Both the position numbers and the translations under genes were made by a program. The notes under the pieces were generated by a model that worked only from the letters and a program-made list of their open reading frames with translations, made no database searches and was not told where the DNA came from. Below are positions 567 through 15,017 of a stretch of 64,000 nt of DNA, piece after piece. Positions within the stretch are counted from its first letter, which is position 1. Every line of letters starts with the position of its first letter. Source of the stretch: an uncultured Oscillospiraceae bacterium. GTDB lineage: Bacteria > Bacillota > Clostridia > Oscillospirales > Oscillospiraceae. The stretch lies in assembly GCA_949841465.1 (NCBI GenBank), contig CATKZW010000002.1, positions 37,961 through 101,960 of the forward strand, given 5' to 3'.

Positions 567-709
567 CACTGTTAAGCACAGCGAGCGCCGCAAAAGGAGG
601 TATCCGCGGCCATTGACGTGGAGGAGCAGCGCGGAACGTGCACATTGCACAGAGTATCCCTTGGGATTTTTACCAAAATTCGTGCAATAAGACTGGATAA
701 TTTTCCATC

Positions 710-761
710 TTGTAGAAATCGAAGTTTAGGAGTATTCTTAAAGTAATTAATTTAATAAATT
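710..761 (+). promoter_or_regulatory. Candidate sigma-A promoter of the sugar operon with a downstream AT-rich near-palindrome (possible ROK operator)
   Basis: TTGTAG(710-715)-17 bp-TATTCT(733-738); AATTTAATAAATT at 749-761 in an AT-rich island. Confidence 0.4.
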
Positions 762-870
762 CACAGGATCTGGACAGGGGCATGCCCCTGTCTGCCGCCT
801 GATGGCGGCAGACCCCGACCGCCCCCGGCAGAACGGGGCCCGCCGTGAGAAGAGAAAGGAAGGATTCATT

Positions 871-2028
871 ATGCCTCTGGTTCCAATGAAAGCTATTCTG
901 GACGCCACTGAAACGTACAACTATGCCCAAGGTGCGTTCAACGTCAACGCCGTGTGCCAGGCCAAAGCCGTTATTGAGGTGCACGAGATGTTCCGTTCCG
1001 CCGCCATCCTCCAGGGCGCGGACCTGGCCAACGCCTTCATGGGGGGGCGTACCGACTTCGCCCAAGGCACCCTGGAGGACAAGAAGAAGGGCGCGCTGAA
1101 CATCGCCAACGCGGTGAAGAAGTACGCCGAGACCAGTCCCATCCCCGTGGCCCTGCACCTGGACCACGGCAAGAATATGGAGTCCTGCGTGGCCGCCATC
1201 GCCGGCGGGTACACCTCCGTGATGATCGACGGCTCCTCCCTGCCCTTCGACGAGAACGTGGAGCTCACCCGCGAGGTGGTGAAGTACGCCCACGAGCGGG
1301 GCGTCACCGTGGAGGGTGAGCTGGGCGTGCTGGCCGGGGTGGAGGACCATGTGTTTGCCGCCAACTCCACCTATACCAACCCCATGGACGCGGTGAAGTT
1401 CTTCCGCCAGACCGGAGTGGACGCCCTGGCCATCAGCTACGGTACCAAGCACGGGGCCAACAAGGGGAAGGACACCGTCATTCGCAAGGAGATTGCCATC
1501 GCCACCAAGGAGTGCATGCTGCACGAGGGCATCGAGGGCACTCTGGTGAGCCACGGCTCATCCACCGTGCCCCAGTACATCGTCTCCGAGATCAACGCCC
1601 TGGGCGGCGATATCCACGACGCCTACGGCATCAAGAAGGAACAGCTCAAAGAGGTGTCCAAGCTGGGCATCCGCAAGATCAACGTGGACACCGACATCCG
1701 CCTGGCCGTCACCCGCAACCTGCGGGAGCTGTTCCGGGACGAGCCGGAGCTGCGGGAGAGCTCCACCGTCAGCGCCATCTACCAGCTCCTGCTGGCCAAC
1801 CCCTCCGCCTTTGACCCCCGGGTGTTCCTGCCCCCCATCATGGACACCGTCATGTACGGCAATGTGCCCGACGAGGACGTGGGCTGCATTGTGGACTGCA
1901 TCGAGCGGGGCGTGAAGGAGGTCGTGGGCACCCTGATCGTGGAGTTTGACAGCGTGGGCAGGGCCCCGCTCATTGAGAACGTCTCCCTGGACGAGATGGC
2001 GGAGCGGTATCGGAAGAAGGGCATCTGA
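871..2028 (+). CDS. fba: Class II fructose/tagatose-bisphosphate aldolase family protein
   Basis: VALHLDHG, TSVMIDGS, VEGELG, LAISYGTKHG and KINVDTD motifs; SD GAAAGGAAGG upstream of ATG 871. Confidence 0.88.
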   Translation: MPLVPMKAILDATETYNYAQGAFNVNAVCQAKAVIEVHEMFRSAAILQGADLANAFMGGRTDFAQGTLEDKKKGALNIANAVKKYAETSPIPVALHLDHGKNMESCVAAIAGGYTSVMIDGSSLPFDENVELTREVVKYAHERGVTVEGELGVLAGVEDHVFAANSTYTNPMDAVKFFRQTGVDALAISYGTKHGANKGKDTVIRKEIAIATKECMLHEGIEGTLVSHGSSTVPQYIVSEINALGGDIHDAYGIKKEQLKEVSKLGIRKINVDTDIRLAVTRNLRELFRDEPELRESSTVSAIYQLLLANPSAFDPRVFLPPIMDTVMYGNVPDEDVGCIVDCIERGVKEVVGTLIVEFDSVGRAPLIENVSLDEMAERYRKKGI

Positions 2029-2161
2029 ACCAGGCGGAGGGGAGGCGCAGCGGCGGTAAGGGTCAGCCCCCTGCGGTATGAACTGTCCCCGCAGGGGGAC
2101 AGGGGTGCGCCTCCCACGTTCCGTGCTGTACACTGCAAACTATTGATTGGAGAATCAAGCT

Positions 2162-3325
2162 ATGGGAAAAAACATTCTCGTCGCCCACGGCGGCGGGCCC
2201 ACCGCCGTGATCAACTGCTCCCTGCAAGGGGTGGTGGAGGCCGCCCGGGCGTCCGGGCAGGTGGACAAAATCTACGCCGCCCGCTTTGGCGCGGAAGGCA
2301 TCCTGGCCGGAGACCTCATCGACCTGACGGACGTGCCCGCTGCCGTCATCGCCCGCCTGCGGAACACCCCCGCCTCCGCCATCGGCTCCTGCCGCCGGAA
2401 GCTGGGGGAGGCGGACTACCCCACCGTGCTGGAAACGCTGAGAAGGTTCGAGATCGACTGCTTCTTCTACAACGGCGGCAACGACTCCATGGACACCTGC
2501 AATAAAGTAAACGAGCTGGCAAAAAAAGAGGGGTTGGACGTCCGGGTCATCGGGATCCCCAAGACCATGGACAACGACCTGGATCTCACCGACCACTGCC
2601 CTGGCTTCGGCTCCGCCGCCCGGTACGCCGCGCTCAGCTCCGCCGAGCTGGCCCTGGACGCCTCCGGCCTGCCCATCCACGTGGTGGTGCTGGAGCTGAT
2701 GGGCCGCAACGCGGGCTGGGTCACCGCCGCCAGCGCAATGGCGGCGCGGCTCACCGACTGCCAGGTGCTGACCTACCTGCCCGAGGTCCCGGTGGACGAG
2801 GACAGGATGCTGGCCGACATTGAGAAGGGCTACGCCAAGGGGAAGGGCCTGCTGGTCGCCGTCAGCGAGGGCGTCTGCGGCCTGGACGGCAAGCCTTTGG
2901 CCGACACCGGCATGGTGGACGGCTTCGGCCACACGGTGCCCGGCGGCACCGCCCAGCACATCACCGACCAGATCATCCGGAAGCTGGGCCTCAAGTCCCG
3001 GGCGGAAAAGCCGGGGCTGTTGGGCCGGGCCAGCATCCCCTATGTGTCCTCCACCGACCGGGAGGAGGCATATGCCGTGGGCCGCTTCGCGGTGGAATCC
3101 GCGCTGAACGGGGAGAGCGGGTATATGGTAGCCATCGACGCGGTGCGCAGCCCGTCCTACTCCAGCAGCCTGTCGCTGGTGCCGCTGGACAAGGTGGCCA
3201 ATGTGGAGAAGAAGTTCCCCCTGGAGTGGATCGTGGACGGCAATCAGATCGCGGACGGGTTCTTTGATTATGCGATGCCTCTGATGGGGGATGCGTTCCC
3301 GGAATACGCTTTGCTGAGAAAGTGA
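2162..3325 (+). CDS. pfp: Phosphofructokinase (PfkA family), PPi-dependent signature
   Basis: HGGGPTAVIN, GGNDS (Asp at the donor-specificity position), PKTMDND and ELMGRNAGW motifs. Confidence 0.85.
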   Translation: MGKNILVAHGGGPTAVINCSLQGVVEAARASGQVDKIYAARFGAEGILAGDLIDLTDVPAAVIARLRNTPASAIGSCRRKLGEADYPTVLETLRRFEIDCFFYNGGNDSMDTCNKVNELAKKEGLDVRVIGIPKTMDNDLDLTDHCPGFGSAARYAALSSAELALDASGLPIHVVVLELMGRNAGWVTAASAMAARLTDCQVLTYLPEVPVDEDRMLADIEKGYAKGKGLLVAVSEGVCGLDGKPLADTGMVDGFGHTVPGGTAQHITDQIIRKLGLKSRAEKPGLLGRASIPYVSSTDREEAYAVGRFAVESALNGESGYMVAIDAVRSPSYSSSLSLVPLDKVANVEKKFPLEWIVDGNQIADGFFDYAMPLMGDAFPEYALLRK

Positions 3326-3335
3326 GAAAAGGGAT

Positions 3336-4172
3336 ATGAAACATATTTACTTGAACTTGAAGCGGTTTGACGTGCCTGTGGAGCTGGGCGGCGTGAACCG
3401 GCTGGCCCCTATAAAGGACTGGGGCGCGGCGGTGGTAAACGGCACCCAGGAGGCGCTGCGCAGATATGACCCGGCCAAGGTGGAGTTCGTCCAGTACCTG
3501 CCGGAGGCTCACCTGCTGGGGGCGGTTTCCGCGCTGACCGAGGGCAGCCCGGTGCAGCTGGGCAGCCAGGGCGTGTACCGCATGAACACGGCGGCGGGGG
3601 GTAACTTCGGGGCCTTCACCACCAACCGGCCCGCCTCCATTGTCAAGGCCATGGGCTGCACCTCCACCCTCATCGGCCACTGCGAGGAGCGCAACGACAA
3701 GAAGGGCGTCCTGGCCGAGGCGGGGGTGACGGACATGAGCGCCGTCAACCGTCTGCTGAACCAGGAGATCAAATGCGCTCAGGACGCGGGGCTGACGGTG
3801 CTGTACTGCATCGGCGAGACCGCCGAGGAGCAGCCCCAGTGGGAGCAGGTGCTGGGCGAGCAGCTGGATGTCGGCCTGGACGGCGTGGACAAGGGCCGGG
3901 TGGTCATCGGCTATGAGCCGGTGTGGTCCATCGGTCCGGGCAAAACCCCGGCGGACAAGGACTACATTACCAAAATCGCCCGCTTCGTCAAGGAGCGCAC
4001 AGCTGGCATGGACGTGGTGTACGGCGGCGGGCTGAAGGCGGACAACGCCGCCATGCTGGCCTCCATTGAGGAGATCGACGGCGGGCTGATCGCCCTGACC
4101 CGCTTCCAGGGCGAAATCGGCTTCTATCCCGACGAGTATCTGGAGATCATCCGTTTGTACTTGGGCGAATAA
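3336..4172 (+). CDS. Divergent triose-phosphate isomerase family protein
   Basis: NLK, GHCEER, YEPVWSIGPG and YGGG motifs; catalytic Lys, His and Glu are retained but the flanking motifs are non-canonical. Confidence 0.85.
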   Translation: MKHIYLNLKRFDVPVELGGVNRLAPIKDWGAAVVNGTQEALRRYDPAKVEFVQYLPEAHLLGAVSALTEGSPVQLGSQGVYRMNTAAGGNFGAFTTNRPASIVKAMGCTSTLIGHCEERNDKKGVLAEAGVTDMSAVNRLLNQEIKCAQDAGLTVLYCIGETAEEQPQWEQVLGEQLDVGLDGVDKGRVVIGYEPVWSIGPGKTPADKDYITKIARFVKERTAGMDVVYGGGLKADNAAMLASIEEIDGGLIALTRFQGEIGFYPDEYLEIIRLYLGE

Positions 4173-4272
4173 AAAGAGGAGCGAAACGCAGTTTCGCGGT
4201 CAAAAGTTTTTCTTTTTGGTTCTTTTTCTTTTTCCAAAAAGAAAAAGAATACCACCAACAAGGAGGGCGCAC

Positions 4273-5757
4273 ATGAAACTGGAATTTGAATACGGTCACG
4301 GCCTGATGGCCGCCGACCTGCCCGACAGCACCTACGTGTTCATCCCCGGCGAGACCGTGGCCGATCCCCCCTGCCTGCCCCAGGACTGGGACAGCTTGTA
4401 TAACGCCACTCTGGAGAGTATTCGCAATCCCATCGTCATGCCGCCCCTCAAGGAGCTGGCCGGCCCTGGCAAGACGGTGGTGTTCGTCATCCCGGACATT
4501 GTGAAGGGCGGCTGCCAGCCCACCGCTCACCGGAAGGTGTCCATCCGGGCTTGTCTGGACGAGCTGTACGCCGCCGGGGTGGAGAAAAAGGACATCCTGC
4601 TGCTGTTCTCCAACGGTCTGCATCCTCGGGCCACCGTGGGCGAGATGAAGCAGATTCTGGGCGAGGAGCTGTTCAACGAGTTCTATTGGACCGGCCAGAT
4701 CACCAGCCACGACAGCGAGGACTATGACCATATGGCGGATCTGGGGGTCACCCGCCGGGGGGACCCGGTGCTGATGAACAAGTACGTGTTCGACTGTGAT
4801 ATCCCCATCCTGATCGGCCACACCCAGGGCAATCCCTACGGCGGCTATTCCGGCGGGTACAAGCACTGCGCCACCGGCATTACCCACTGGCGGAGCATTG
4901 CCAGCCACCACGTCCCCGACGTGATGCACCGGGCGGACTTCACCCCGGTGTCCGGCAAGAACCTGATGCGCACCAAGTTCGACGAGATCGGCATGTGGAT
5001 GGAGGAGAAGATGGGCCATCCCTTCTTCTGCTGCGACGCGGTGCTGGACACCTACTCCCGTCAGATCGCCGTCTTCTCCGGCTACGCCAAGGAGATGATG
5101 CCGGTGAGCTGGGAGGTCGCCGACAAGCGCACCTACGTGCTCTGGGCGGAGAAGAAGTACGACGTGATGGTGTTCGGCATGCCCCAGGCCTTCCACTACG
5201 GCGACGGCATGGGCACCAACCCCATCCAGATGATGCAGGCGCTCAGCGCTCAGGTCATCCGCCACAAGCGGGTGATGAAGGACAACTGCGTTATCATCTG
5301 CTCGTCCATCTGCAACGGCTACTTCCACGACGAGCGCTGGCCCTACCTGCGGGAGCTGTACGAGCTGTTCCAGCACGACTATATGAACGTTCTGCCGGAT
5401 ATGAACCGCTACGGCGAGTATTTCGCCACCAACCAGGAGTACATCCGCAAGTACCGCTTCGCCAACGCCTTCCACCCCTTCCACGGCTTTTCCATGATGA
5501 GCTGCGGTCACATCGCCGAGATGAACACCGCCGCCATCTACATCGTAGGGGCCCAGGAGCCGGGCATCGCCCGGGGCATGGGGCTCAAGACCCGGGCCAC
5601 CTTTGAAGAGGCGCTGGCGGACGCAAAGAAAAAGTTTGTGGGGGAGAATCCCAGCATCCTGGCCCTGCCCAAGACCTTCAAGGTGGGCGCGGTCCACCTG
5701 TGCATGAAGGACCAGCCCTACGACGGCACCAACGGCTGCGGCTGCTGCGGGTGCTGA
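4273..5757 (+). CDS. LarA (lactate racemase)/DUF2088 family nickel-pincer-dependent racemase/epimerase
   Basis: PDIV, SHD and GGYSGGYK motifs, with His at +16 from the Lys; SD AAGGAGG upstream of ATG 4273. Confidence 0.8.
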   Translation: MKLEFEYGHGLMAADLPDSTYVFIPGETVADPPCLPQDWDSLYNATLESIRNPIVMPPLKELAGPGKTVVFVIPDIVKGGCQPTAHRKVSIRACLDELYAAGVEKKDILLLFSNGLHPRATVGEMKQILGEELFNEFYWTGQITSHDSEDYDHMADLGVTRRGDPVLMNKYVFDCDIPILIGHTQGNPYGGYSGGYKHCATGITHWRSIASHHVPDVMHRADFTPVSGKNLMRTKFDEIGMWMEEKMGHPFFCCDAVLDTYSRQIAVFSGYAKEMMPVSWEVADKRTYVLWAEKKYDVMVFGMPQAFHYGDGMGTNPIQMMQALSAQVIRHKRVMKDNCVIICSSICNGYFHDERWPYLRELYELFQHDYMNVLPDMNRYGEYFATNQEYIRKYRFANAFHPFHGFSMMSCGHIAEMNTAAIYIVGAQEPGIARGMGLKTRATFEEALADAKKKFVGENPSILALPKTFKVGAVHLCMKDQPYDGTNGCGCCGC

Positions 5758-5837
5758 ACGCCCACCCTGTGAACGGCAAGACGGCCCCGGGCAGGCCCAG
5801 GGGCTGAACATGAGAAAAGAGTAAAGGAAGGTGTCGT

Positions 5838-6668
5838 ATGAGCAAAACAACGCAGGCAAAGAGGCCCTTGACCCAGGCGGAAAAGCGGAATAAGACGATC
5901 AACCGGCTGTGGCTGCTGCTGTCCCTGGTGGTGGCGCTGATCGTGTGGTTCCTGCTGTCCATCGGGGAGAAAACCGGGCGCAGTTTCCCGTTCTTATTCT
6001 CCATTGGCGGCAGGGACTCGGTAATCCAGGGCCTCCAGACCATGATTGAGCGCGACGCGCTGTGGAGCGATTTCGCCAGCAGTATGATCTCGGTGGCCAT
6101 GGGCTTCGGTCTGGGCTTCCTAACCTCCCTGCCCATGGCCTTCCTCATGGCCTGGTACACCCCGGTGCGCAAAATCATCGAGCCCTGGATCAACTTCATC
6201 CGCAACATCCCCGCCCTGGCCTACGCGCCCCTGGTGGTCCTCATGCTGGGCGTGGGGCGTACCCCGTCCGTGGTGCTGATCTGGATCTGCACCTTCATGA
6301 CCATGTGCATCACTATCTTCCACGGCATCCGCAACATCGACAACACCCTGGTCAAGGCGGCCAAGGTGCTGGGCGCCACCGACATGGATATCTTTTTCCG
6401 CATCACCCTGCCCGCCACGGTGCCCTTCATCCTCACCGCCGTGCGCCTGGGCCTGAGCGCGGGCCTGACCACCCTGCTGGCGGCTGAGTCCACCGGCGCA
6501 AGGGCCGGCCTGGGCATGCGCATCCGCACCCTCCAGAGCACCTTTGAGACCAACGCCATGCTGGGCTACATCATCATCATCGGCATCATCGGCACGCTGC
6601 TGAACATCCTTGTGGACTTCATCGAAAGGAGGCTGACCTCATGGCAGGAGAAGCGGGAAGAGGCGTAA
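5838..6668 (+). CDS. ABC transporter permease, NitT/TauT (SsuC/TauC) type
   Basis: Hydrophobic helices, RNIPALAYAPL, the EAA-like loop AAKVLGA, and AAESTGARAGLG. Confidence 0.9.
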   Translation: MSKTTQAKRPLTQAEKRNKTINRLWLLLSLVVALIVWFLLSIGEKTGRSFPFLFSIGGRDSVIQGLQTMIERDALWSDFASSMISVAMGFGLGFLTSLPMAFLMAWYTPVRKIIEPWINFIRNIPALAYAPLVVLMLGVGRTPSVVLIWICTFMTMCITIFHGIRNIDNTLVKAAKVLGATDMDIFFRITLPATVPFILTAVRLGLSAGLTTLLAAESTGARAGLGMRIRTLQSTFETNAMLGYIIIIGIIGTLLNILVDFIERRLTSWQEKREEA

Positions 6669-7435
6669 AAATTCAGATTAAAAACGTCAAGAAAGAATAC
6701 CACGGCGACCACGGCACCACCGTGGCCCTCAACGGCGTCAACCTGGACATCATGGAGAACGAGTTTGTCTGCGTGGTGGGCCCCTCCGGCTGCGGCAAGT
6801 CCACTCTGCTGAACATCCTGGCCGGCCTCCACGAGGCCACCTCCGGCGAGTGCTGCCTGGACGGTGAGCTCATCCACGGCACCGATGTGAAGCGGGGCGT
6901 GGTGTTCCAGCAGTACGCCCTGTTCCCCTGGCAGACCGTGATCCAGAACGTCATGTTTGGTCCCCAGATGAAGCGCCTGCCCAAGACGGAGTGCGAGACC
7001 ATCGCCCGCAAGTACATCAAGATGGTGGGGCTGGAGGACTTTGAAAACTCCTTCCCCAAGGAGCTGTCCGGCGGCATGAAGCAGCGGGTGGCCATCGCCC
7101 GGGCCTACGCCAACAATCCCGAGGTACTGCTCATGGACGAGCCCTTCGGCGCGCTGGACGCCCAGACCCGCGCCCAGCTCCAGACCGAGCTGCTCAAGAC
7201 CTGGGAGGAGGAAAAGAAGACCTGCTTCTTCATCACCCACGACGTGGACGAGGCCGTGCTGCTGGCCCAGCGGGTGGTCATCATGTCCGCCCGGCCCGGG
7301 CGCATCAAGCGGATCGTGGACATCGACATCCCCTATCCCCGGGACCAGGGCACCAAGAGCGACCCCCGGTTCATGGAGCTGAAGGCGGAGATCTGGAACG
7401 AGGTCTACCAGGAGTACCTGGAGGTCCGCAAGTAA
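6641..7435 (+). CDS. ABC transporter ATP-binding protein, NitT/TauT (SsuB/TauB) type; true start may be slightly downstream
   Basis: GPSGCGKST, LSGGMKQR, LLMDEPFGALDAQTR and ITHDVDEA motifs. Confidence 0.92.
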   Translation: MAGEAGRGVKIQIKNVKKEYHGDHGTTVALNGVNLDIMENEFVCVVGPSGCGKSTLLNILAGLHEATSGECCLDGELIHGTDVKRGVVFQQYALFPWQTVIQNVMFGPQMKRLPKTECETIARKYIKMVGLEDFENSFPKELSGGMKQRVAIARAYANNPEVLLMDEPFGALDAQTRAQLQTELLKTWEEEKKTCFFITHDVDEAVLLAQRVVIMSARPGRIKRIVDIDIPYPRDQGTKSDPRFMELKAEIWNEVYQEYLEVRK

Positions 7436-7501
7436 CCCGTACCTGGCCGCCCCAAGGCGGTGAACATACAGGTAAACGCAACAAACAAATCAAGGAGGAA
7501 C

Positions 7502-8578
7502 ATGAAAATGAAGAAATTGACTGCTCTGCTGCTGGCCCTGGTCATGATGATGTCCCTGATGGCCTGCGGCGGCGACGCCGGCAAGACCAGCACGCCCCCG
7601 GCCAGCGAGCCCGCCGCCCCCGCCAGCGAGCCTGCCGCTCCTGAGGGCACGCCCGAGCCTGCCGGTCCCGAGCCCATCAAGCTGACCATCGCCTATATGC
7701 CCAACTACGCCTCCCTCTGGGGCGTGCTGTCCGCCATGGAGCAGGGCTTCTTTGAGGAAGAGGGCATCACCCTTGAGCTGAAGGAGTTCCCCGACGGCCC
7801 CTCTGAGGTGGCCGCCATGGAGAGCGGCGACGTCCAGCTGGCCTACATCGGCAAGGGCGCCCACCGCCTGTGCATCCTGGGCAACGCCATCATCTTCGCG
7901 CCCAGCTCCGTCCACACCGTGGATAAGGTGGTGTGCATGCCCGACAGCGGCATCCAGTCCGTGGAGGACCTGAGGGGCAAGACCATCGCCTTCAACGCCG
8001 GTTCCTCCTCCGAGACCACCTTTGACAACGCCCTGAAAGTGGGCGGCCTGACCCGGGACGATGTGGACCCCTACGACATGGGCATTGACTACATGGTGCC
8101 CGCCGCCGTGTCTCGCTCCATCGACGCCGCCGTGTGCTGGAACCCGTACTCCGGCCAGATCCTCCAGCAGGTGGAGGGCTCCTACGAGATCGAGTTCGCC
8201 GACGGCTCCACCAACATCTCCAGCTGGATCTGCCTGCCCAAGTACGCCGAGGAGAACCACGACGTCCTGGTGCGCTTCAGCCGCGCCCTGTACAAGGGCA
8301 TGGACTGGGGCTCCAAGGAGGAGAACTACGACACCGTGGCCCAGTACTGCGCCAACCAGACCAAGACCAGCCTGGAGGCCAACCAGCTCCAGGTGGGCGA
8401 CGCCCATTGGTTCAACATCGCTGACCTGACCTCCGGCCTCTCCGACGGCGCCATCAGGAAGTACTACGAGGGGATGCAGAACGACATGGTCCAGGGCGGC
8501 AACATCGAGGCCGGCCAGGCCAAGGAGGACGTGGGCGACTTCGTCCTGTTCGACGTGATGGAGGAGGCCCTGAAGTAA
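7502..8578 (+). CDS. ABC transporter substrate-binding lipoprotein, SsuA/TauA-like
   Basis: Lipobox SLMAC, a Pro/Ala linker, DLRGKTIA and DAAVCWNP motifs; SD AAGGAGG. Confidence 0.88.
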   Translation: MKMKKLTALLLALVMMMSLMACGGDAGKTSTPPASEPAAPASEPAAPEGTPEPAGPEPIKLTIAYMPNYASLWGVLSAMEQGFFEEEGITLELKEFPDGPSEVAAMESGDVQLAYIGKGAHRLCILGNAIIFAPSSVHTVDKVVCMPDSGIQSVEDLRGKTIAFNAGSSSETTFDNALKVGGLTRDDVDPYDMGIDYMVPAAVSRSIDAAVCWNPYSGQILQQVEGSYEIEFADGSTNISSWICLPKYAEENHDVLVRFSRALYKGMDWGSKEENYDTVAQYCANQTKTSLEANQLQVGDAHWFNIADLTSGLSDGAIRKYYEGMQNDMVQGGNIEAGQAKEDVGDFVLFDVMEEALK

Positions 8579-8684
8579 GCCCCATCCCAAATCAAACAGC
8601 GTTCCGCACATAGGAACGGGCCCTATGGGACGGCAGATTAGGTCCGCCCCATGGGGCCCGTTTTCTCCGAAAGGAGGAGAGCAC

Positions 8685-10556
8685 ATGGAGATCAACATTA
8701 CATTTGCCCCGGAGGCCGGGGAACCCGTCCGCTTCGCCGCCGGGGAGCTGACCGCCTATCTGGGGCGGATGCTGGCGGAGGAGACGGGGACGCTGTCCGT
8801 CAGCCTGGAGGTCCGTCCGGACCGGGAACCCGGCCTGCCCGACTGGTTCTCCGTAAATCTGGAGGAAAGGGGCGGGACTGTGGCCGGAAACAGCGGGCGG
8901 GCGGTGCTGCTGGGCGTGTACGACTGCCTGCGCCGCCTGGGGTGCCGCTTCCCCGCCCCGGTGAAGGGCTGCGAGACGGTGCCCAGCCTCACCCGACAGG
9001 CGCTGGCCCTCCGGTATGAGCACCGGGCGTCCTTTTACCACCGGGGTGTGTGCATCGAGGGGGCGGACAGCCGGGAAAACCTGCTGGATTTCATCGACTG
9101 GCTGCCTAAGGCGGGATACAACAGCTTTTTCCTGCAATTCAGGACCCCTTACGCCTTTTTCAAGCGCTGGTATCTCCACGAGCGCAACCCCCTGCGAAAG
9201 GCGGAGCCCTTCTCCCCCGCGGACGTGCCGGTCTGGACGGAGGAGGCGGAGGGAGCGCTGAAACGCCGGGGCCTGCTGCTCCACAAGGTGGGCCACGGCT
9301 GGACCGGGGCGGCGCTGGGCTTCGACGCCCAGTCCTGGGACGCGGACCCGGAGCCGCTGTCGGAGGAAAAGCGCCCCCTGGCCGCCCAGGTGGACGGCGT
9401 GCGGGGGCTGTACAAGGGCGTGAGCGCCAACACCAACCTGTGCTTCCGCAACGGGGACGCGGCGGAGGTCTTTGCCGCCCTGGTGGCGGACTACGCCCAG
9501 GCCCACCCCGGCGTGGATTACCTCCACGTCTGGCTGGCGGACACCTATAACAACGTGTGCGAGTGCGAAGGGTGCCGGGCCACCACCCTCTCCGACCAGT
9601 ATGTAGAGCTGCTCAACGAGATCGACCGCCGCCTCACCGCCCAGGGGCTGGATACCAAAATCGTGTTCCTGCTCTACCAGGAGCTGCTGTGGCCGCCGGT
9701 GAAGGCCCGGCTGACCAACCCGGAGCGGTTTGTGCTCATGTTCGCCCCCATCAGCCGCACCTTCGAGCAGTCCTACCCGGCGGTGGGGGAGCTGCCCCCC
9801 ATCCCAGCCTACGAGCGGAATCGGATCGAGCTGCCCACCAGCCTGGAGGAAAACCTGGCCTTCCTCCGGGGCTGGCAGAGGCAGTTCGCGGGGGACAGCT
9901 TTGTCTACGACTACCCCCTGGGCCGGGCCCACTACGGCGATTTCGGCTATGTGAAGCTGGCCAGGGTCGTCAGTGGGGACGTGAAACGGCTGAAACAGCT
10001 GGGCCTCAACGGCTATATCAGCTGCCAGGAGCTGCGCTCGGGCCTGCCCAACTTCTTCCCCAACTATGTGCTGGGCCGGACGTTGATGGACGAGCGCGCC
10101 GATGTGAACGAGCTGATGGCCGAGTATTTCTCCGCCGCCTACGGGGAGGACTGGCCCGCCGTGGCGGATTATCTGTTCCAGCTGTCCGGCCTGAGCAGCA
10201 CCGACTACGTCAACGGCAAGGGACCGCGCACAGACCAAGACATGGCCGCCCGGATGGAGGCCGTCCGGGAGCTGTGCCTGGACTTCACCCCCACCCTGGA
10301 CGCCCACCGCACCCCCCAGGGCTGGCAGACCCCTTTCTGGGCGGCGCTGGACTACCACCGGGCGTATGTGCTCAAGCTGTCCCGAGCCCTGCGGCATCTG
10401 GCCCTGGGCGAGGCGGAGAAGGCGGCGGAGAGCCGGCGGGCTTTCCTGGAGCTGATCTGCGAAAAAGAGCCGGACTTCCAACCCTGGCTGGACGTGTACC
10501 GGGTGCTGGAGGTCACGGAAAACTATACCGGCTTCCGCGGGGGCGCGGAGGCGTGA
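8685..10556 (+). CDS. DUF4838-like putative glycoside hydrolase (cytoplasmic)
   Basis: N-terminal FAAGELTAYL / LLGVYDCLRRLGCRF segment, HVWLADTYNNVCECEGC and FVYDY; no signal peptide; SD AAGGAGG. Confidence 0.65.
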   Translation: MEINITFAPEAGEPVRFAAGELTAYLGRMLAEETGTLSVSLEVRPDREPGLPDWFSVNLEERGGTVAGNSGRAVLLGVYDCLRRLGCRFPAPVKGCETVPSLTRQALALRYEHRASFYHRGVCIEGADSRENLLDFIDWLPKAGYNSFFLQFRTPYAFFKRWYLHERNPLRKAEPFSPADVPVWTEEAEGALKRRGLLLHKVGHGWTGAALGFDAQSWDADPEPLSEEKRPLAAQVDGVRGLYKGVSANTNLCFRNGDAAEVFAALVADYAQAHPGVDYLHVWLADTYNNVCECEGCRATTLSDQYVELLNEIDRRLTAQGLDTKIVFLLYQELLWPPVKARLTNPERFVLMFAPISRTFEQSYPAVGELPPIPAYERNRIELPTSLEENLAFLRGWQRQFAGDSFVYDYPLGRAHYGDFGYVKLARVVSGDVKRLKQLGLNGYISCQELRSGLPNFFPNYVLGRTLMDERADVNELMAEYFSAAYGEDWPAVADYLFQLSGLSSTDYVNGKGPRTDQDMAARMEAVRELCLDFTPTLDAHRTPQGWQTPFWAALDYHRAYVLKLSRALRHLALGEAEKAAESRRAFLELICEKEPDFQPWLDVYRVLEVTENYTGFRGGAEA

Positions 10557-10571
10557 AAGGAGGAGTTTCCC

Positions 10572-11393
10572 ATGCGTCACGACTACTATTACTACGACCG
10601 GGAGCAGCTGCTGGCGGCCCCGAAGCTGCCCATCCAGGTGCTGGCGGACAACGACGCGGTGTTCCAGGCCATGGCCTGGGAGATGGCGGAGGAGATCCGG
10701 CGGAAAAACGCCCTGGGGGAGCGGACGGTGTTCATCTGCCCCGTGGGGCCGGTGGGGCAGTACCCCTATTTCGTGGACATCGTCAACCGTGAGGGCATCA
10801 GCCTGAAAAACGTCTGGTTCCTCAACATGGACGAGTACCTGACGGACGAGAAGGAGTGGGTGGACAAGGACCATCCTCTCAGCTTTCGGGGCTTTATGGA
10901 CCGCGCTGTGTACGCTAAAATCCGCCCCGAGCTGCTCATGCCCGAGGGACAGCGGGTGTTCCCCGACCCCAAGGCCCCGGACCGCATGACCCGGCTGGTG
11001 GAGGAGCTGGGCGGGGTGGACATCTGCTTCGGCGGCATCGGCATCAACGGCCATTTGGCCTTCAACGAGGCCCAGGATGAGCTGACCCCAGAGCAGTTCA
11101 AGGCCCTGCGCACCCGGGTGCTGCCCATCTCCCCGGAGACCCGGACGGCCAACGCCATCGGCGACTTCAACGGCGCGCTGGACGACATGCCCCGCTGGTG
11201 CGTCACCATCGGCATGAACGAGATTTACAACGCCCGGAAGGTGCGTCTGGGCTGCTTCCGGAACTGGCACCGGGCGGTGGTGCGCCACGCGGCCTACGGC
11301 GAGGTGTCCGCCCATTTCCCTGCCACCCTGCTCCAGGACCATCCGGATGCGCTGCTGCGCCTCACAGAGTTCGTGGCCAAGCCCGCCGACTGA
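10572..11393 (+). CDS. nagB: Glucosamine-6-phosphate deaminase/isomerase-like protein
   Basis: NMDEY and GGIGINGHLAFNE motifs, TIGMNEI. Confidence 0.78.
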   Translation: MRHDYYYYDREQLLAAPKLPIQVLADNDAVFQAMAWEMAEEIRRKNALGERTVFICPVGPVGQYPYFVDIVNREGISLKNVWFLNMDEYLTDEKEWVDKDHPLSFRGFMDRAVYAKIRPELLMPEGQRVFPDPKAPDRMTRLVEELGGVDICFGGIGINGHLAFNEAQDELTPEQFKALRTRVLPISPETRTANAIGDFNGALDDMPRWCVTIGMNEIYNARKVRLGCFRNWHRAVVRHAAYGEVSAHFPATLLQDHPDALLRLTEFVAKPAD

Positions 11394-11408
11394 CAGAAAG
11401 GAGCCGGT

Positions 11409-12560
11409 ATGCCGCAAACCTACATTGTAAACGGGCAGGTCTATCTGGACCGCCGCTTCCAGCCCATGACCGTGGGCATGCACGGCGGGGTCATCCGCCT
11501 GCTGCCCCCCGGCGCGCCCATCCCGGAGGGGGCGGAGACGGTGGACGCCGCCGGGATGAAGGTGGTCCCCGGCTTCATCGACGTCCACACCCACGGCGGC
11601 GTGGGGGTGGATGTGAACGGCGCGGACGCGGATGATCTGGAGAAGCTGTGCCGCTTTTTTGCCGGGAACGGCACCACCGCGTGGCTGTGCTCTGTGCTCA
11701 CCGACACGGTGGAGCAGACCAATTGGTGCATTGATCAGTTCAAGGCCCACAAGGCGGTGGGCCAGCCCACCGCCGAGCTGCTGGGCATCCATCTGGAGGG
11801 CCCCTTCCTGGCCGCTGAGTACAAGGGGGCCATGCCGGAGCACCTGCTGAGGGCCGGCGACCCGGCGCTGCTGGGGGCCTATCAGGAGCGGGCGGAGGGC
11901 AATATCCGCTACCTCACCGTCTCTCCGGAGGCGGAGGGGGTGATCGGCCTGATCCCGGAGGCCCAAAGGCTGGGCATTGTCGCCGCCATCGGCCACTCCG
12001 GGGCGGACTATGAGACCTCCATGGAGGCCATTGCCGCCGGGGCCCGGGCCTGCACCCACACCTTCAACGCCATGGGGCTGTTCCACCAGCACCGCCCCGC
12101 CATCATGGGGGCCGTGCTGGAGTCCGATGTGTACTGCGAGATGATCTGTGACGGGCGGCACCTCCATCCCGGCGCGGTGCGCCTGCTCATCAAGACCAAG
12201 GGCCTGGACCGGGTGGTGGCCGTCACCGACTCCATCATGGCCGCGGGCCTGCCCGACGGGCGCTACCACCTGGGGGTCAACGACGTGGTGGTGGAGGAGG
12301 GGGACGCCAAGCTGGCCTCCACCGGCGTGCGGGCGGGGAGCACCCTCACCCAGGATACCGCCCTGCGCAGCCTGATGGCATTCACCGGGCAGCCCATGGA
12401 GGAGCTGCTGCCCGCCCTGACGGAGAATCCAGCCAGGCTCATCGGCGTGCTTGACCGCAAGGGCTCCATTGCCGAAGGCAAGGATGCGGACCTGGTGCTG
12501 CTGGACGGGGAAAACCAGGTGCGCACCGTGTTCTGCCGGGGCCGGCGGGTGAAGGGCTGA
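11409..12560 (+). CDS. nagA: N-acetylglucosamine-6-phosphate deacetylase
   Basis: PGFIDVHTHG, HLEGPF, GHS, THTFNAM, DGRHLHP and VTDS motifs. Confidence 0.93.
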   Translation: MPQTYIVNGQVYLDRRFQPMTVGMHGGVIRLLPPGAPIPEGAETVDAAGMKVVPGFIDVHTHGGVGVDVNGADADDLEKLCRFFAGNGTTAWLCSVLTDTVEQTNWCIDQFKAHKAVGQPTAELLGIHLEGPFLAAEYKGAMPEHLLRAGDPALLGAYQERAEGNIRYLTVSPEAEGVIGLIPEAQRLGIVAAIGHSGADYETSMEAIAAGARACTHTFNAMGLFHQHRPAIMGAVLESDVYCEMICDGRHLHPGAVRLLIKTKGLDRVVAVTDSIMAAGLPDGRYHLGVNDVVVEEGDAKLASTGVRAGSTLTQDTALRSLMAFTGQPMEELLPALTENPARLIGVLDRKGSIAEGKDADLVLLDGENQVRTVFCRGRRVKG

Positions 12561-12565
12561 CGACA

Positions 12566-12597
12566 AAAGCGCATTGCGGCATGCCGCAATGCGCTTT
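12566..12597. terminator. Bidirectional terminator (32-bp perfect palindrome) between nagA and the ROK gene
   Basis: AAAGCGCATTGCGGCA|TGCCGCAATGCGCTTT. Confidence 0.8.
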
Positions 12598-12614
12598 CCC
12601 CTGAGCCATCCGGA

Positions 12615-13844
12615 TTATTCCGCACAAACCTGGAGTCCGTGGGCGATGGCCACCGCCGCCGCCCCTCTGGCCCCGCTGTACCGGTCCGGTTCCACAAATA
12701 TGAAATTTGTGTCCCCCCGGGTGACCTTGCAGATGTTGCGGCGGGCCACATCCAGCAGCTGCCGGCGGTTGGCAGGGCTTTGGAACAGCTCACCGTCGAT
12801 GAGCAGGGCGTGGGGGCAGGTAAAGTTGACGATGTTGGCAATCGCCACTCCCAGGGTGTACACCGCCCGCTCCACGATGAGGTAGACCGCCGGGTCTCCC
12901 GCCTCCTGGGCCTGGAGAATCTGGGCCATGGCGGGCGCCTCCCCTTTGGCGCACAGGGAGCGGAGGATGGGCGCCTCCCCCTTGGCCAGGGCGTCCATGC
13001 ACCGGGCGATGATGGCCCGGCTGCTGGAGATGGCCTCTAGACAGCCGTGGTTGCCGCAGGTGCACTGAGGGCCGTTGGACTCCATCACCATGTGGCCCAC
13101 CTCCCCCGCCCCCACGATGGAGCCGTAGGAGCTGGAGGTGTTCAGGATCAGCGGGCAGGCAATGCCGGTATGGATAAACAGATAGGCGAAGGTGGGAACG
13201 TCGTTGAGCTGCTCCCGCTGGAACAGGGAGGCGCCGCAGGCGCGGGCGCAGGCGTTGTTCTCTACGCAGATGGGCTTGTGAAAGTCCAAACGGCGGCGCA
13301 CGTCCCGCAGGATGTTCTTGTCGAACCAGTTGAAGCTGGGGCGGACCCGGAGTATGCCCGTCTCGGTGTCCACCAGGCCGGGCAGGCAGAAGCCCAGGGC
13401 GTCGATGTCGTCAAAGCCCAGTTTCAGCTCCGCCAGCAGGTCCCGAACCAGCCGGCAGGTCATGTCCAGGTTGTACTCGTAGTCCCGGTCGGCCGCGGCG
13501 GCCTCCGCCTGGCCCAGCACCCGGCCCCGGAAGTCGGTGACGCACGCGGTGCTGTCTGTCCCCCGCATCTCCACCCCCACATACCGGCGGGCCTGGGGCA
13601 CGATGTCCAACAGGCGGCTCTTCCGGCCGGAGCGCTGGTCGGCGCTCTCCTGCTGGTCCAGCTCCTGCACCAGCCCCTCGGCGATCATGGCGCTGATGTT
13701 GGTGGTGATGGTGGGCAGAGTCAAGCCCAGCCGCTTGGCGATGTCTGCCCGGGTGATGGGGGCGCAGTGGTACACCATGCGGAGGATGGAGGACTGGTTG
13801 GCCGCCCTGACCCGGGGGAGGTTGTTGCCCTTGACAAACTGCAT
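12615..13844 (-). CDS. ROK family transcriptional repressor (NagC/XylR-like)
   Basis: N-terminal HTH (TRADIAKRLGLTLPTIT), GRKS linker, ENNAC and GEVGHMVMESNGPQCTCGNHGCLE zinc motif. Confidence 0.92.
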   Translation of the reverse strand: MQFVKGNNLPRVRAANQSSILRMVYHCAPITRADIAKRLGLTLPTITTNISAMIAEGLVQELDQQESADQRSGRKSRLLDIVPQARRYVGVEMRGTDSTACVTDFRGRVLGQAEAAAADRDYEYNLDMTCRLVRDLLAELKLGFDDIDALGFCLPGLVDTETGILRVRPSFNWFDKNILRDVRRRLDFHKPICVENNACARACGASLFQREQLNDVPTFAYLFIHTGIACPLILNTSSSYGSIVGAGEVGHMVMESNGPQCTCGNHGCLEAISSSRAIIARCMDALAKGEAPILRSLCAKGEAPAMAQILQAQEAGDPAVYLIVERAVYTLGVAIANIVNFTCPHALLIDGELFQSPANRRQLLDVARRNICKVTRGDTNFIFVEPDRYSGARGAAAVAIAHGLQVCAE

Positions 13845-14001
13845 CTGATCACCTTCTTTCCGGAGAATTTTTACAAAGCGCGGTGAATGCGCCATGGCGG
13901 CAGGGTGTATACCGTATTTTCTTAAAAATATTATACAAAGCCCGGGAAAAGGTGTCAAGCGGCCGGGGAAAAACAGTGGAAAAGAAGAAGGGGGTATTTT
14001 T

Positions 14002-14787
14002 ATGGCGGTGTTTTTTCTGGTGAGCTTTCTAGCCAGCATCGTGGGGGCCATCTGCGGCATCGGCGGCGGGGTGGTCATCAAGCCGGTGCTGGACATGCTG
14101 GGGCTGGAGACGGTGGCGGCCATCAGCTTTTTGTCCGGCTGCACGGTGCTGTCCATGAGCTGCTATTCCGTCACCCGGGCGCTGGCCAAGGGGGACAGCG
14201 GCGTGGACCTGAAAACAGGCACTCCACTGGCCCTGGGCGCGGCCCTGGGCGGGCTGGCGGGCAAGCAGCTGTTTGACCTGGTCCGCTCCCTGTTCGAAAA
14301 TCAAGGCCGGGTGGGTGCGGTGCAGGCGGCCTGCTTGGGGATCATCACCCTGGGCACCCTGGCCTACACCCTGAACAAGGCCCGCATCCCTACCCACAGA
14401 GTCGCTGCCCCCCCGGCCTGCGTTGCCATCGGGCTGTGCCTGGGGATCATGTCCAGCTTTTTGGGCATCGGCGGCGGCCCCATCAACCTGGTGGTTCTAT
14501 ACTTCTTTTTCAGCATGGACACCAAAACCGCCGCCTCCAACAGCCTGTACATCATCCTGTTCAGCCAGCTGGCCAGTCTGCTGTCCACCCTGGTCACCCG
14601 CACGGCGCCCGATTTCCGCTGGCCGGTGCTGCTGGTGATGGTGTGCGGCGGTGTGTGCGGCGGCGTGGTGGGCCGCACGCTGAACAAGCGGATGGACAAC
14701 AGGCTGGTGGAGCGGCTGTTCATCGGCCTGATGGCCGCCATTGTGCTCATCTGCGTGTACAACGTGTACCGGGGGCTGTCCGCCTGA
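14002..14787 (+). CDS. TauE/SafE (TSUP) family sulfite/organosulfonate exporter
   Basis: Duplicated GIGGG motifs (GAICGIGGGVVIKP, SSFLGIGGGPIN) in a polytopic membrane protein. Confidence 0.85.
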   Translation: MAVFFLVSFLASIVGAICGIGGGVVIKPVLDMLGLETVAAISFLSGCTVLSMSCYSVTRALAKGDSGVDLKTGTPLALGAALGGLAGKQLFDLVRSLFENQGRVGAVQAACLGIITLGTLAYTLNKARIPTHRVAAPPACVAIGLCLGIMSSFLGIGGGPINLVVLYFFFSMDTKTAASNSLYIILFSQLASLLSTLVTRTAPDFRWPVLLVMVCGGVCGGVVGRTLNKRMDNRLVERLFIGLMAAIVLICVYNVYRGLSA

Positions 14788-14929
14788 GCGTGTCCCGGAA
14801 ACAGAGGAAAAGGCCGGGCTGCCACGTAACCGCCCAACGCTTGACCCACTTTCTGTATGATATCGTGATACTACTTTTCCCTGTTGGTACAATTTCTAAC
14901 TTTGCCAAAGAAAACCAGCGGCTGAATTT

Positions 14930-14958
14930 GAATACGCTTCCAAATCCTGCGGATAATA
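14930..14958 (+). promoter_or_regulatory. Candidate forespore (sigma-F/G-like) promoter of spoVT
   Basis: GAATA(14930-14934)-17 bp-GATAATA(14952-14958), resembling the GHATA...CATAMTA consensus. Confidence 0.4.
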
Positions 14959-15017
14959 CAGATGGAACGATACAAAAAATGCCGTGGGGAGCCGCGGCAG
15001 AACGCAGGAGGAAAACC

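Follow-up and report, generated by a model that had tools for sequence, protein, structure and literature searches.

The window analysed here, a stretch of 64,000 nucleotides from a gut-dwelling member of the Clostridia, carries ten co-oriented genes (871-12560) that probably form one operon, adjoined by genes for a ROK-family repressor and a TauE/SafE permease lying on diverging strands (Table 1). Pfam and NCBIfam scans confirmed all twelve genes listed in an earlier note on this DNA, although two starts had to be moved, that of the ROK gene from 14156 to 13845, as read from its start and ribosome binding site, and that of tauE from 13894 to 14003. That note had also described the cluster as devoid of a sugar kinase, and the scans agree, as neither a sugar kinase nor a PTS component was found among the ten operon genes. 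The promoter and leader sequence is kept at orthologous loci; RNAalifold applied to six leader sequences predicted 15 pairs, five of them with compensatory changes, and no Rfam family matched the leader. A perfect σ70-like promoter for the ROK gene is located at 13958-13930.

Table 1. Coordinates of the genes and regulatory features of the locus.
Feature	Position	Strand	Basis
Operon promoter region with structured 5' leader	650-870	+	AT-rich box, -35 TTGTAG, -10 TATTCT
Operon leader hairpins	773-792 and 790-813	+	Downstream of the -10; followed by RBS GAAAGGAAGG
Class II ketose-bisphosphate aldolase paralogue	871-2028	+	PF01116, 238 bits
PPi-type phosphofructokinase (PFK) paralogue	2162-3325	+	NF010675, 433 bits
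Divergent TIM-family isomerase	3336-4172	+	PF00121, 117 bits
Single-His LarA homologue (LarAH)	4273-5757	+	PDB 9q3j, 896 bits; 9q2u, 798 bits
NitT/TauT-family ABC permease	5838-6668	+	PF00528
ABC ATPase	6641-7435	+	PF00005
NMT1/SsuA/TauA-fold lipoprotein SBP	7502-8578	+	PF09084, 69 bits
GH185-like glycoside hydrolase, cytoplasmic (DUF4838)	8685-10556	+	PF16126
Divergent NagB-family deaminase/isomerase paralogue	10572-11393	+	TIGR00502, 92 bits (below cutoff)
NagA-family deacetylase paralogue	11409-12560	+	TIGR00221, 284 bits
ROK-family repressor, N-terminal winged helix	12615-13845	-	PF00480 and HTH_24/MarR
TauE/SafE (TSUP) anion permease	14003-14787	+	PF01925, 112 bits

All enzymes of the operon are additional paralogues that share 28-37% identity with the other copies in the genome. 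The aldolase (35% identical to the other Fba genes) scored below the cutoffs of all FBA/TBA equivalog models, and its closest PDB entry is the Giardia FBA 3gak. The PFK, 32% identical to the other Pfk (contig C30), exceeds the NF010675 cutoff for PPi-PFK (273 bits), matches PDB 3hno with 282 bits and contains the GGNDS and PKTMDND (PKT) motifs, which upholds its earlier assignment to the PPi type. The NagB-like protein was found by NCBIfam only (TIGR00502 cutoff, 237 bits); it retains the catalytic NMDEY and NGHLAFNE motifs, and in every cluster orthologue the shorter FICPVGP takes the place of the phosphate loop GLxTGxxP. NagA exceeds its TIGR00221 cutoff (226 bits) and keeps the metal ligands, but its anion pincer is shifted, reading FNAMGLFHQHRPA where B. 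subtilis has HHREPG and the paralogue on contig C4 has THRSPG. In both NagA and the NagB-like protein the catalytic residues and the cationic residues of the anion site are kept, with phosphate loops remodelled in all cluster orthologues. A mycobacterial NagA takes GlcNAc6S and refuses GlcNAc.

LarAH falls within the single-His (His to Asn) LarA subfamily and is roughly 80% identical to LarA_Bw from Blautia wexlerae (PDB 9q3j) and roughly 70% to LarA_Sp from Streptococcus plurextorum (PDB 9q2u; also solved as 9q3k) (Gatreddi et al. 2025, PMC12611868). All cofactor and active-site residues described for these proteins, which have no assigned substrate, are retained; the conserved positions comprise D75, K78, H117, N187, K197, H213, H308, Y309, H404 and R434, and dN/dS is 0.05-0.10. 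Glycolysis-like neighbour genes are shared as well, as those authors also noted (PMC12611868). By contrast, LarAH stands here among amino-sugar genes, together with a sulfonate-type importer, a GH185-like enzyme and TauE, in a genome devoid of LarC and LarE; its cofactor acquisition is therefore unaccounted for, which counts against the explanation favoured below. The role of 2-hydroxy-acid racemase first proposed for it is not supported; a member of the single-His subfamily did not racemise lactate (PMC12611868). The TIM-like protein shares 28% identity with the housekeeping Tpi and falls below the cutoffs of all TPI equivalog models; it retains the catalytic N/K, GHCEER and YEPVWSIGPG motifs, with YGGS changed to YGGG.

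The importer is of the NitT/TauT type, as had been proposed, and is SsuA/TauA-like by family scans and PDB matches. For the permease and ATPase, NCBIfam gave best matches of the SaoP/TauC/SsuC and SaoA/TauB types, none of which reached its cutoff. The SBP, with the lipobox LMAC, reaches 108 bits against TIGR01728 (SsuA_fam; cutoff 163 bits), and in the PDB it comes nearest to SsuA (3e4r and 2x26), TauA (6ssy) and ThiY (3ix1). It should be noted that NMT1-type SBPs also bind non-anionic ligands, for example pyrimidines (3ix1), another point against the favoured explanation. The tauE gene is the sole copy in the genome (tblastn).

No signal peptide was detected in the DUF4838 protein, a candidate exo-6-sulfo-β-N-acetylglucosaminidase by its sequence. 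Its residues Q151, H204, D286, Y410 and R606 are spaced like Q174, H227, D309, Y436 and R633 of Sp_0475 from S. pneumoniae, a cytoplasmic exo-6-sulfo-β-GlcNAcase (Bains et al. 2023, PMC10570127), the equivalences being drawn only from spacing and conservation pattern. Among 136 family representatives (33-56% identity), the H204 and D286 columns are invariant, Y410 is Tyr in 135, and the Q151 column holds Gln in 122 and Glu in 12. The sulfate-binding position R606 is Arg in only 27 of the 136 and in all 54 close orthologues; the same conservation pattern has been published for GH185 cluster 3 (PMC10570127). In the characterised enzyme, R633 contributes about 23 kJ/mol to the recognition of sulfate, and a 6-phosphate is a 525,000-fold poorer substrate (PMC10570127). 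The two proteins share the DUF4838 domain, cytoplasmic location and length (about 620-650 aa); an AF2 model of the operon protein (pLDDT 83.5) matches GH115, GH67, GH20, GH84 and GH89 folds, and GH115, GH84 and GH20 are also structural neighbours of Sp_0475. They differ in context, as Sp_0475 adjoins PTS and GH1 genes and not NagA/NagB, LarAH or TauE (PMC10570127). That Sp_0475 is the only characterised GH185 member makes this link less firm.

We surveyed 80 species-level loci retrieved through the LarA homologue. The entire cluster is present in the same order in about 23 of these genomes, so the gene arrangement is not due to chance. The constant partner of LarAH is the TIM-like gene (69/80 loci, mostly directly upstream), followed by the SBP family (58), the aldolase (49), PFK (47), NagA (42), TauE (42, within 10 kb and often directly downstream), the NagB-like gene (41) and the DUF4838 gene (23). 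None of the approximately 40 species clusters bearing both NagA and NagB contains a kinase or a PTS. In one sister cluster (L060) the order is sulfatase, aldolase, PFK, TIM, LarAH, TauE and rSAM-SPASM, a radical-SAM gene of anSME-like type; in another (L082) a sulfatase with a CQPSR motif is fused to LarAH, with two tauE genes and then rSAM-SPASM coming after it, and in a third (L083) rSAM-SPASM and TauE lie near LarAH. Sulfatase or anSME-like genes occur near LarAH at only about 6 of 83 loci. Other LarAH clusters carry sugar kinases (some FGGY), type I phosphodiesterase, GDPD or HAD genes, or split transketolase, HIBADH-family (YihU-like) dehydrogenase and Fe-ADH genes.

Taken together, these data give circumstantial support to the earlier proposal of an amino sugar carrying an anion at C6, most plausibly GlcNAc 6-sulfate. 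We consider it an evenly balanced proposition, from the sequence, that the operon serves the catabolism of 6-O-sulfated N-acetylglucosamine (6-sulfo-GlcNAc). This is strengthened by the sulfate-binding Arg of the GH185-like glycosidase, by the conservation of the SsuA-like importer and TauE alongside LarAH, by the sulfatase and anSME-like genes of sister clusters and by the remodelled yet cationic anion sites of NagA and NagB; it is further supported by the lack of a kinase/PTS phosphorylation step in the cluster and by the divergent paralogy of every enzyme. The scarcity of sulfatase/anSME-like genes near LarAH weighs against it, as does the chance that TauE serves LarAH in another way.

We think it unlikely that this is a conventional Nag/Aga-type operon serving GlcNAc or GalNAc glycosides that bear no sulfate. 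A kinase encoded elsewhere would then make the 6-phosphate, the PFK, aldolase and TIM would have the usual phosphate esters as substrates (as in a tagatose branch, for example), LarAH would be an accessory sugar-phosphate epimerase, and the links to TauE and to the SsuA-like importer would have no meaning for sulfur chemistry. The known GalNAc (Aga) route consists of NagA, NagB, PFK and class II aldolase, the set present here, and the succession of deacetylase, deaminase/isomerase, 1-kinase and class II aldolase is that of the Nag/Aga systems (NagA-NagB; AgaA-AgaI/S-PfkA/AgaZ-KbaY). Several observations count against a sulfated substrate on this side: NagA scores above the NCBIfam equivalog threshold of the standard 6-phosphate enzyme, Arg-based anion sites cannot tell sulfate from phosphate, a kinase-sized ROK protein is encoded 20 kb off (34929-35837), and LarAH also occurs with the sugar kinase (including FGGY), phosphodiesterase-type, GDPD or HAD genes mentioned above. 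In addition, a phosphorylated sugar was tentatively modelled in LarA_Sp (Gatreddi et al., PMC12611868). However, the operon differs from Nag/Aga systems in having neither a PTS nor a kinase for the 6-phosphate, in consisting of divergent paralogues throughout and in adding a TIM paralogue, LarAH, a TauT-type ABC system, GH185 and TauE. Left unexplained are the GH185-like enzyme with its sulfate-binding Arg, a sulfonate-type ABC in place of a sugar ABC or PTS, the conserved TauE and sister-cluster sulfatase/anSME genes, the private TIM and the remodelled NagA/NagB phosphate loops.

Removal of the sulfate from a 6-sulfated amino sugar before the lower pathway, with unsulfated intermediates downstream and export of sulfate by TauE, appears rather improbable. 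The agent could be LarAH, through oxidation-assisted elimination at the hexose level, in keeping with its fusion or adjacency to a sulfatase in two sister clusters, or the genome's lone sulfatase (contig C31). According to the account in PMC7326374 of Egan et al. 2016, the ats2 system of B. breve UCC2003 likewise devotes a transporter and cytoplasmic enzymes to cross-fed free GlcNAc-6S, but desulfates it inside the cell with a sulfatase and an anSME before an ordinary pathway; the operon has neither gene, and an anSME homologue was not found in this genome. Moreover, no C6 phosphorylation would be left although NagA and NagB retain anion sites, and private PFK, aldolase and TIM paralogues would be needless.

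The earlier note had allowed for either a 6-sulfate or a 6-sulfonate; the sulfate ester is retained, and a C-S sulfonate is less likely given GH185 and the gut setting. We consider it very improbable that the substrate is a sulfoquinovose-type amino sugar or conjugate, degraded by a true sulfoglycolysis variant exporting a C3 sulfonate. TauE-family exporters do serve known sulfonate pathways, the importer is SsuA/TauA-like, and the split transketolase, YihU-like dehydrogenase and Fe-ADH of other LarAH clusters recall sulfo-TK and sulfo-EMP. The latter (YihS/YihV/YihT/YihU, C3-sulfonate export) resembles the route proposed below in its logic: an isomerase and a C1-phosphorylating enzyme act in turn on a hexose that bears a sulfur oxyanion at C6, the product is split into DHAP and a sulfo-triose, and the cell then gets rid of the sulfo-triose. 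Nevertheless, the protein families defining sulfo-EMP are all absent here (sulfoquinovosidase, SQ isomerase, PfkB kinase and class I SFP aldolase, among the ten genes); its substrate is the C-S sulfonate sulfoquinovose, whereas that of the operon is probably an amino-sugar sulfate ester. The characterised GH185 enzyme acts on a sulfate ester. To our knowledge, no sulfonated N-acetylhexosamine has been reported in the gut.

Intact import of a phosphorylated or phosphonylated amino sugar, such as a GlcNAc-phosphate wall-polymer fragment, is hardly credible, despite the weak Phosphonate-bd match of the SBP (24 bits) and the GDPD, HAD and type I phosphodiesterase genes flanking some LarAH clusters, as housekeeping PFK, aldolase and TPI would be enough, the characterised GH185 enzyme rejects 6-phosphate, and nothing would account for the links with TauE, sulfatase and anSME. 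MurNAc and GlcNAc-malate, raised earlier as alternatives, are not supported, since the genes defining those pathways are absent.

Gene identities, cluster conservation, paralogy and motifs are direct observations, from which we infer every step of a 6-sulfo-GlcNAc route; the individual steps are rated lower than the substrate itself. The SsuA/TauA-like lipoprotein and its ABC system would import the sulfated sugar, from which the cytoplasmic GH185-like hydrolase would release GlcNAc-6S. The NagA paralogue would deacetylate it, and the NagB-like paralogue would deaminate and isomerise the product to fructose-6-sulfate. After C1 phosphorylation by the PPi-PFK paralogue, the 1-phospho-6-sulfo-ketose would be cleaved to DHAP and a sulfated triose by the class II aldolase paralogue. 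In the most speculative step, the sulfated triose would be processed by the TIM paralogue together with LarAH, the single-His nickel-pincer enzyme, possibly with release of sulfate through enediolate or hydride-shuttle chemistry. TauE would export sulfate or a sulfo-C3 product, and the ROK protein would repress both the operon and the two diverging promoters, those of rok and tauE. As substrate we envisage either free GlcNAc-6S or short 6S-GlcNAc-β-glycosides released from mucin or keratan-type host glycans, and a supply is conceivable because B. bifidum releases GlcNAc-6S and does not consume it, leaving it free in the gut. The operon would most likely represent an undescribed route in which the sulfate stays on the sugar.

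The ORF listing and the profile scans bore out the gene set that the earlier note had ascribed to this operon of ten co-oriented genes, including its statement that the cluster has no sugar kinase: neither a sugar kinase nor a PTS component was found among the ten genes by profile scans. No convincing terminator was found within 871-12560. The ROK and TauE genes lie beyond and, given their starts, diverge from a 157-bp spacer that contains a perfect sigma70-like promoter.

Genes of the operon and the divergent ROK and TauE genes, with the basis of each call
Feature	Coordinates	Strand	Basis
Class II aldolase	871-2028	+	ORF listing, profile scans
PPi-type PFK	2162-3325	+	NF010675, 433 bits vs 273-bit cutoff
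Divergent TIM-family protein	3336-4172	+	profile scans
LarA homologue (LarAH)	4273-5757	+	profile scans
NitT/TauT-type permease and ATPase	5838-7435	+	profile scans
NMT1/SsuA-like lipoprotein SBP	7502-8578	+	profile scans
DUF4838 protein	8685-10556	+	PF16126
NagB-like protein	10572-11393	+	NCBIfam match alone, below cutoff
NagA	11409-12560	+	above nagA cutoff
ROK protein with winged helix	start 13845	-	start read from sequence
TauE	start 14003	+	start read from sequence; PF01925

A genome-collection scan with LarAH as query yielded 80 species-level loci, spanning Oscillospiraceae, Lachnospiraceae, Christensenellales, Anaerovoracaceae and Sphaerochaetaceae, in which co-occurrence was counted by tblastn and by clustering of GC3-filtered ORFs (high-GC DNA). 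Near LarAH were found the TIM-like gene (69 loci), the SsuA-like SBP (58), the ATPase (55), the permease (50), the aldolase (49), PFK (47), NagA (42), the NagB-like gene (41), TauE (42), ROK (27) and DUF4838 (23), and the complete gene order of the window is kept in about 23 species. A second type of cluster is devoid of DUF4838 and carries a two-component system and, in some cases, a PGI. In further types, TIM-LarAH-TauE is joined by a split transketolase, dehydrogenases, RPE and a FucA-like aldolase, and in another LarAH is accompanied by a type I phosphodiesterase-family protein and a HIBADH-family dehydrogenase. This variety shows that the constant core consists of the TIM paralogue, LarAH, the TauT-type ABC transporter and often TauE, to which the amino-sugar genes form one front end among several. 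Of the co-occurrences foreseen in the earlier note, that with TauE was thus recovered, the links to sulfatases proved modest (sulfatase or anSME-like genes at about 6 of 83 loci), and LarC (PF01969) was present in some LarAH-bearing genomes and absent from 18 of 50, mostly the closest relatives of the window. Two evolutionary rates were observed within the operon (871-12560) when the window was compared with loci L001, L003, L004, L010 and L019 from other genomes: dN/dS is about 0.05-0.2 for the aldolase, PFK, TIM, LarAH, permease and ATPase, and about 0.2-0.55 for the SBP, the DUF4838 protein, the NagB-like protein and NagA.

An aldehyde dehydrogenase gene upstream (3-488) was rejected as a member of the unit because it occurs near LarAH in 1 of the 80 loci and a terminator-like hairpin lies after it. 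The 5' leader, which separates the promoter from the aldolase start, contains two adjacent GC-rich hairpins (773-813) that six orthologous loci keep, 5 of the 15 pairs showing compensatory changes; no Rfam family matched this leader, and the hairpins may constitute a regulatory or stabilising RNA. The 100-bp gap between the TIM and LarAH genes (4173-4272) has a hairpin at 4181-4197 that is terminator-like when scored on the - strand. A palindrome, ATTTT-N4-AAAAT, is present upstream of the operon (666-679) and in the rok-tauE spacer (13916-13929), with 15 sites in the whole 3.09 Mb genome. It is a candidate ROK operator; it was not retained as a shared operator or counted for co-regulation, since the pattern was picked after the sites had been seen and is not kept exactly in orthologous loci.

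The hydrolase of the operon matches DUF4838 (PF16126, 40 bits vs a 26.6-bit cutoff), which spans two families, GH163 (endo-GlcNAcase) and GH185, and its N-terminus, MEINITFAPEAGE, has no signal peptide, as expected of a cytoplasmic enzyme. The founding and sole characterised GH185 enzyme, Sp_0475 of S. pneumoniae, is a cytoplasmic exo-6-sulfo-beta-GlcNAcase whose preference for the 6-sulfate over an unsulfated substrate is 110,000-fold and which acts very poorly on the 6-phosphate (PMC10570127). Most of its sulfate recognition is supplied by R633, described as "not highly conserved" in GH185, a family in which Asp and Tyr are conserved and the Gln is replaced by Glu in a few members (PMC10570127). 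In the DUF4838 protein and 53 orthologues, Q151, H204, D286, Y410 and R606 are invariant, with successive spacings of 53, 82, 124 and 196 residues, compared to 53, 82, 127 and 197 for Q174, H227, D309, Y436 and R633 of Sp_0475. An exhaustive HMMER search (E below 1e-95) gave 136 DUF4838 representatives of 33-56% identity, in which the corresponding columns contain Gln in 122 and Glu in 12, His in 136, Asp in 136 and Tyr in 135; Arg occupies the R606 column, matched to R633 by position only, in 27. This pattern is that of the published GH185 description, namely Gln with few Glu, Asp, Tyr and a variable Arg. None of the representatives has the exact residue positions of Sp_0475, which is absent from the named members of the cluster and has neither a PDB entry nor a detectable relative in the PDB. 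Because Sp_0475 was compared through its published positions and not by direct alignment, the assignment is based on how the residues are spaced and conserved. In agreement with it, an AlphaFold model of the DUF4838 protein (pLDDT 83.5) retrieved GH67, GH115, GH20, GH84 and GH89, the neighbours reported for Sp_0475. We concluded that the DUF4838 protein is a putative GH185 member that keeps the Arg placed, by position, as the counterpart of R633.

The enzymes of the cluster are only 28-37% identical to their counterparts in the same genome, which has other copies of Fba, Pfk and Tpi as well as two additional nagB-nagA pairs. The cluster NagA scores 284.5 bits with TIGR00221 (cutoff 225.65 bits), and its metal ligands HxH, E, H, H and D align with those of 2vhl. 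In solved NagA structures the 6-phosphate is held by a [H/R]-R-E-P-G loop. This canonical pincer is missing from the cluster NagA, where H-Q-H-R-P-A stands instead, the Arg one residue out of place and the Glu gone, as in nearly all cluster orthologues, whereas the NagA paralogue on contig C4 of the same genome keeps a canonical T-H-R-S-P-G loop. The NagB-like protein reaches 92.5 bits with TIGR00502, under the 236.9-bit cutoff, and has no Pfam match; it retains NMDEY and NGHLAFNE with the catalytic Asp, His and Glu, has an Arg at the K208 equivalent, and carries FICPVGP, two residues shorter, in place of the phosphate loop GLxTGxxP. Since the anion residues are kept and the loops altered, NagA and the NagB-like protein would still expect an anion at C6, in a changed pocket. 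A mycobacterial NagA can deacetylate GlcNAc-6-sulfate, its Km being 7-fold higher, and GlcNAc is not its substrate. The PFK has the GGNDS and PKTMDND motifs, the Asp and Lys of which we take to be the PPi-determining positions. The TIM paralogue keeps its catalytic residues, its best equivalog scores (64-82 bits) lying below cutoffs of 130-883 bits. In PFK, aldolase and TIM alike, the catalytic and the Arg/Lys anion-site residues are kept, which is uninformative as to sulfate or phosphate.

An ordinary Nag/Aga operon served by a distant kinase could be proposed from the same enzymes, and one candidate GlcNAc kinase exists, a kinase-sized ROK gene (34929-35837, about 300 aa, without HTH); beside the altered loops of NagA and the NagB-like protein, we consider this arrangement unlikely. 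The only other ROK-family gene of the genome, it adjoins glycogen genes. We favour, at about even confidence, an operon serving GlcNAc-6-sulfate and its beta-glycosides. The amino sugar with an anion at C6 proposed in the earlier note thereby gains support, the GH185 pattern favouring the 6-sulfate over a C-S sulfonate.

The transport genes were compared with sulfur systems. The SBP scores 108 bits with SsuA_fam, below the 163.5-bit cutoff, and the permease 96-131 bits with TauC/SsuC-like models, likewise below cutoffs; the nearest solved relatives of the SBP are SsuA and TauA, at weak E values of 1e-9 to 1e-8. TauE, the sole copy in the genome, scores 112 bits with PF01925 (cutoff 32.6 bits). 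In a Sphaerochaetaceae MAG (L060), the operon begins with a sulfatase with an SGSH_C domain and continues, in this order, with the aldolase, PFK, TIM, LarAH, TauE and a radical-SAM/SPASM gene. On a metagenome contig (L082), a sulfatase N-terminal domain with the formylglycine motif CQPSR is fused to LarAH, and a pair of TauE genes and one radical-SAM/SPASM gene come next (10001-15115); coming from a single contig, the fusion may be a frameshift or assembly artefact. The fused protein (763 aa) joins a short Cys-type sulfatase domain, which has the CQPSR motif and an ELYDYVTDP tail and lacks the middle, to a full LarA homologue. In Subdoligranulum sp. 4_3_54A2FAA (L083, GCA_000238635.1), a carrier of the transketolase variant, LarAH lies near radical-SAM/SPASM and TauE genes, and two more loci have sulfatases at most 7 kb away. 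As a link to sulfur, direct adjacency and fusion carry more weight than bare counts. In L083 (7056-9703), an IS110-family transposase sits between the TIM paralogue and LarAH, and a glyoxalase/VOC-family gene immediately upstream of TIM may hint at a 2-oxoaldehyde intermediate.

The genome of the window itself encodes one sulfatase, and no anSME-like homologue was found in it. Early desulfation of the substrate, by LarAH or by that lone sulfatase, is rather improbable; dedicated paralogues down to TIM and the lack of a sulfatase in the operon argue that the sulfate stays on through aldol cleavage. A C-S sulfonate substrate, which the SsuA- and TauA-like importer would suit, is still less probable: in contrast to sulfo-EMP sulfoglycolysis, none of its families (YihS-type isomerase, PfkB-type SF kinase, class I SFP aldolase, YihU reductase) is represented among the twelve genes. 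A phospho-sugar is very improbable. The MurNAc and GlcNAc-malate alternatives of the earlier note were rejected because profile scans detected neither a MurQ-type etherase nor an LmbE-type deacetylase.

LarAH matches two solved structures, LarA_Bw (PDB 9q3j, 896 bits) and LarA_Sp (9q2u, 798 bits). Its N187 aligns with N185 of LarA_Sp, the Asn that replaces the second catalytic His, and all residues described for the subfamily are present: the NPN-tethering K197, the nickel ligand H213, the remaining catalytic H117, the ribose/phosphate-binding D75 and K78, and H308, Y309, H404 and R434. From its sequence, LarAH is thus a member of the single-His (His to Asn) LarA subfamily. Lactate racemisation was not found for a member of this subfamily, and a role in carbohydrate metabolism is the authors' speculation (PMC12611868); the adjustment of a 2-hydroxy-acid stereocentre, suggested earlier for LarA, is for this reason unsupported. 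A 316.5-Da adduct of LarA_Sp was tentatively modelled as C9H19O10P (PMC12611868). By our arithmetic, this formula has a mass of 318.07 Da, almost that of sulfoquinovosyl-glycerol, C9H18O10S (318.06 Da), and telling a phospho- from a sulfo-ligand is beyond the resolving power of intact-protein MS.

In the genome of the window, which is 93% complete, and in about 20 other LarAH-bearing genomes, no LarC match and no LarE above cutoff were found, nor any LarB by tblastn. LarE exceeded its cutoff solely in LarC-positive controls. In three Lachnospiraceae loci (L061, L065 and L066), larE, larB and larC directly follow LarAH-TauE. Among LarC/LarE-negative genomes, LarAH has a dN/dS of 0.05-0.10, that is, it is under strong purifying selection without LarB, LarC and LarE, which implies scavenging of the cofactor or another maturation route: the NPN cofactor would be either acquired from outside or made by other genes.

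Taken together, these results suggest the following pathway. GlcNAc-6-sulfate would keep its sulfate while the NagA, NagB, PPi-PFK and aldolase paralogues deacetylate it, deaminate it, phosphorylate it at C1 and, by aldol cleavage, split it to give a sulfated triose. On this triose the TIM paralogue and the single-His LarAH would act, taking the sulfate off or rearranging it with no sulfatase involved. Retention of the sulfate throughout is proposed tentatively. It is likewise conceivable, if doubtful, that gut Clostridia and some spirochaetes perform a sulfatase-free "sulfated-sugar glycolysis" through LarAH, without LarB, LarC and LarE in this lineage. No paper dealing with how fructose-6-sulfate or glyceraldehyde-3-sulfate is metabolised came up in a full-text search.

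Colonic mucin is protected by sulfation and, to our knowledge, known microbial use of sulfated sugars needs sulfatases and radical-SAM maturases. GlcNAc-6-sulfate is reportedly released in the gut by B. bifidum, which does not consume it; known assimilation, in B. breve, proceeds via a sulfatase cluster (cited via PMC7326374). If the proposed pathway is true, butyrate-producing Clostridia would have a new, sulfatase-independent and sulfate-retaining way to use host mucus, and could also feed on GlcNAc-6-sulfate that other bacteria set free. The pathway would broaden the physiological role of GH185 and provide a first testable substrate class for a structurally solved, functionally orphan nickel-pincer branch, the many carriers of which without cofactor-synthesis genes raise the question of nickel-pincer cofactor sharing in communities.
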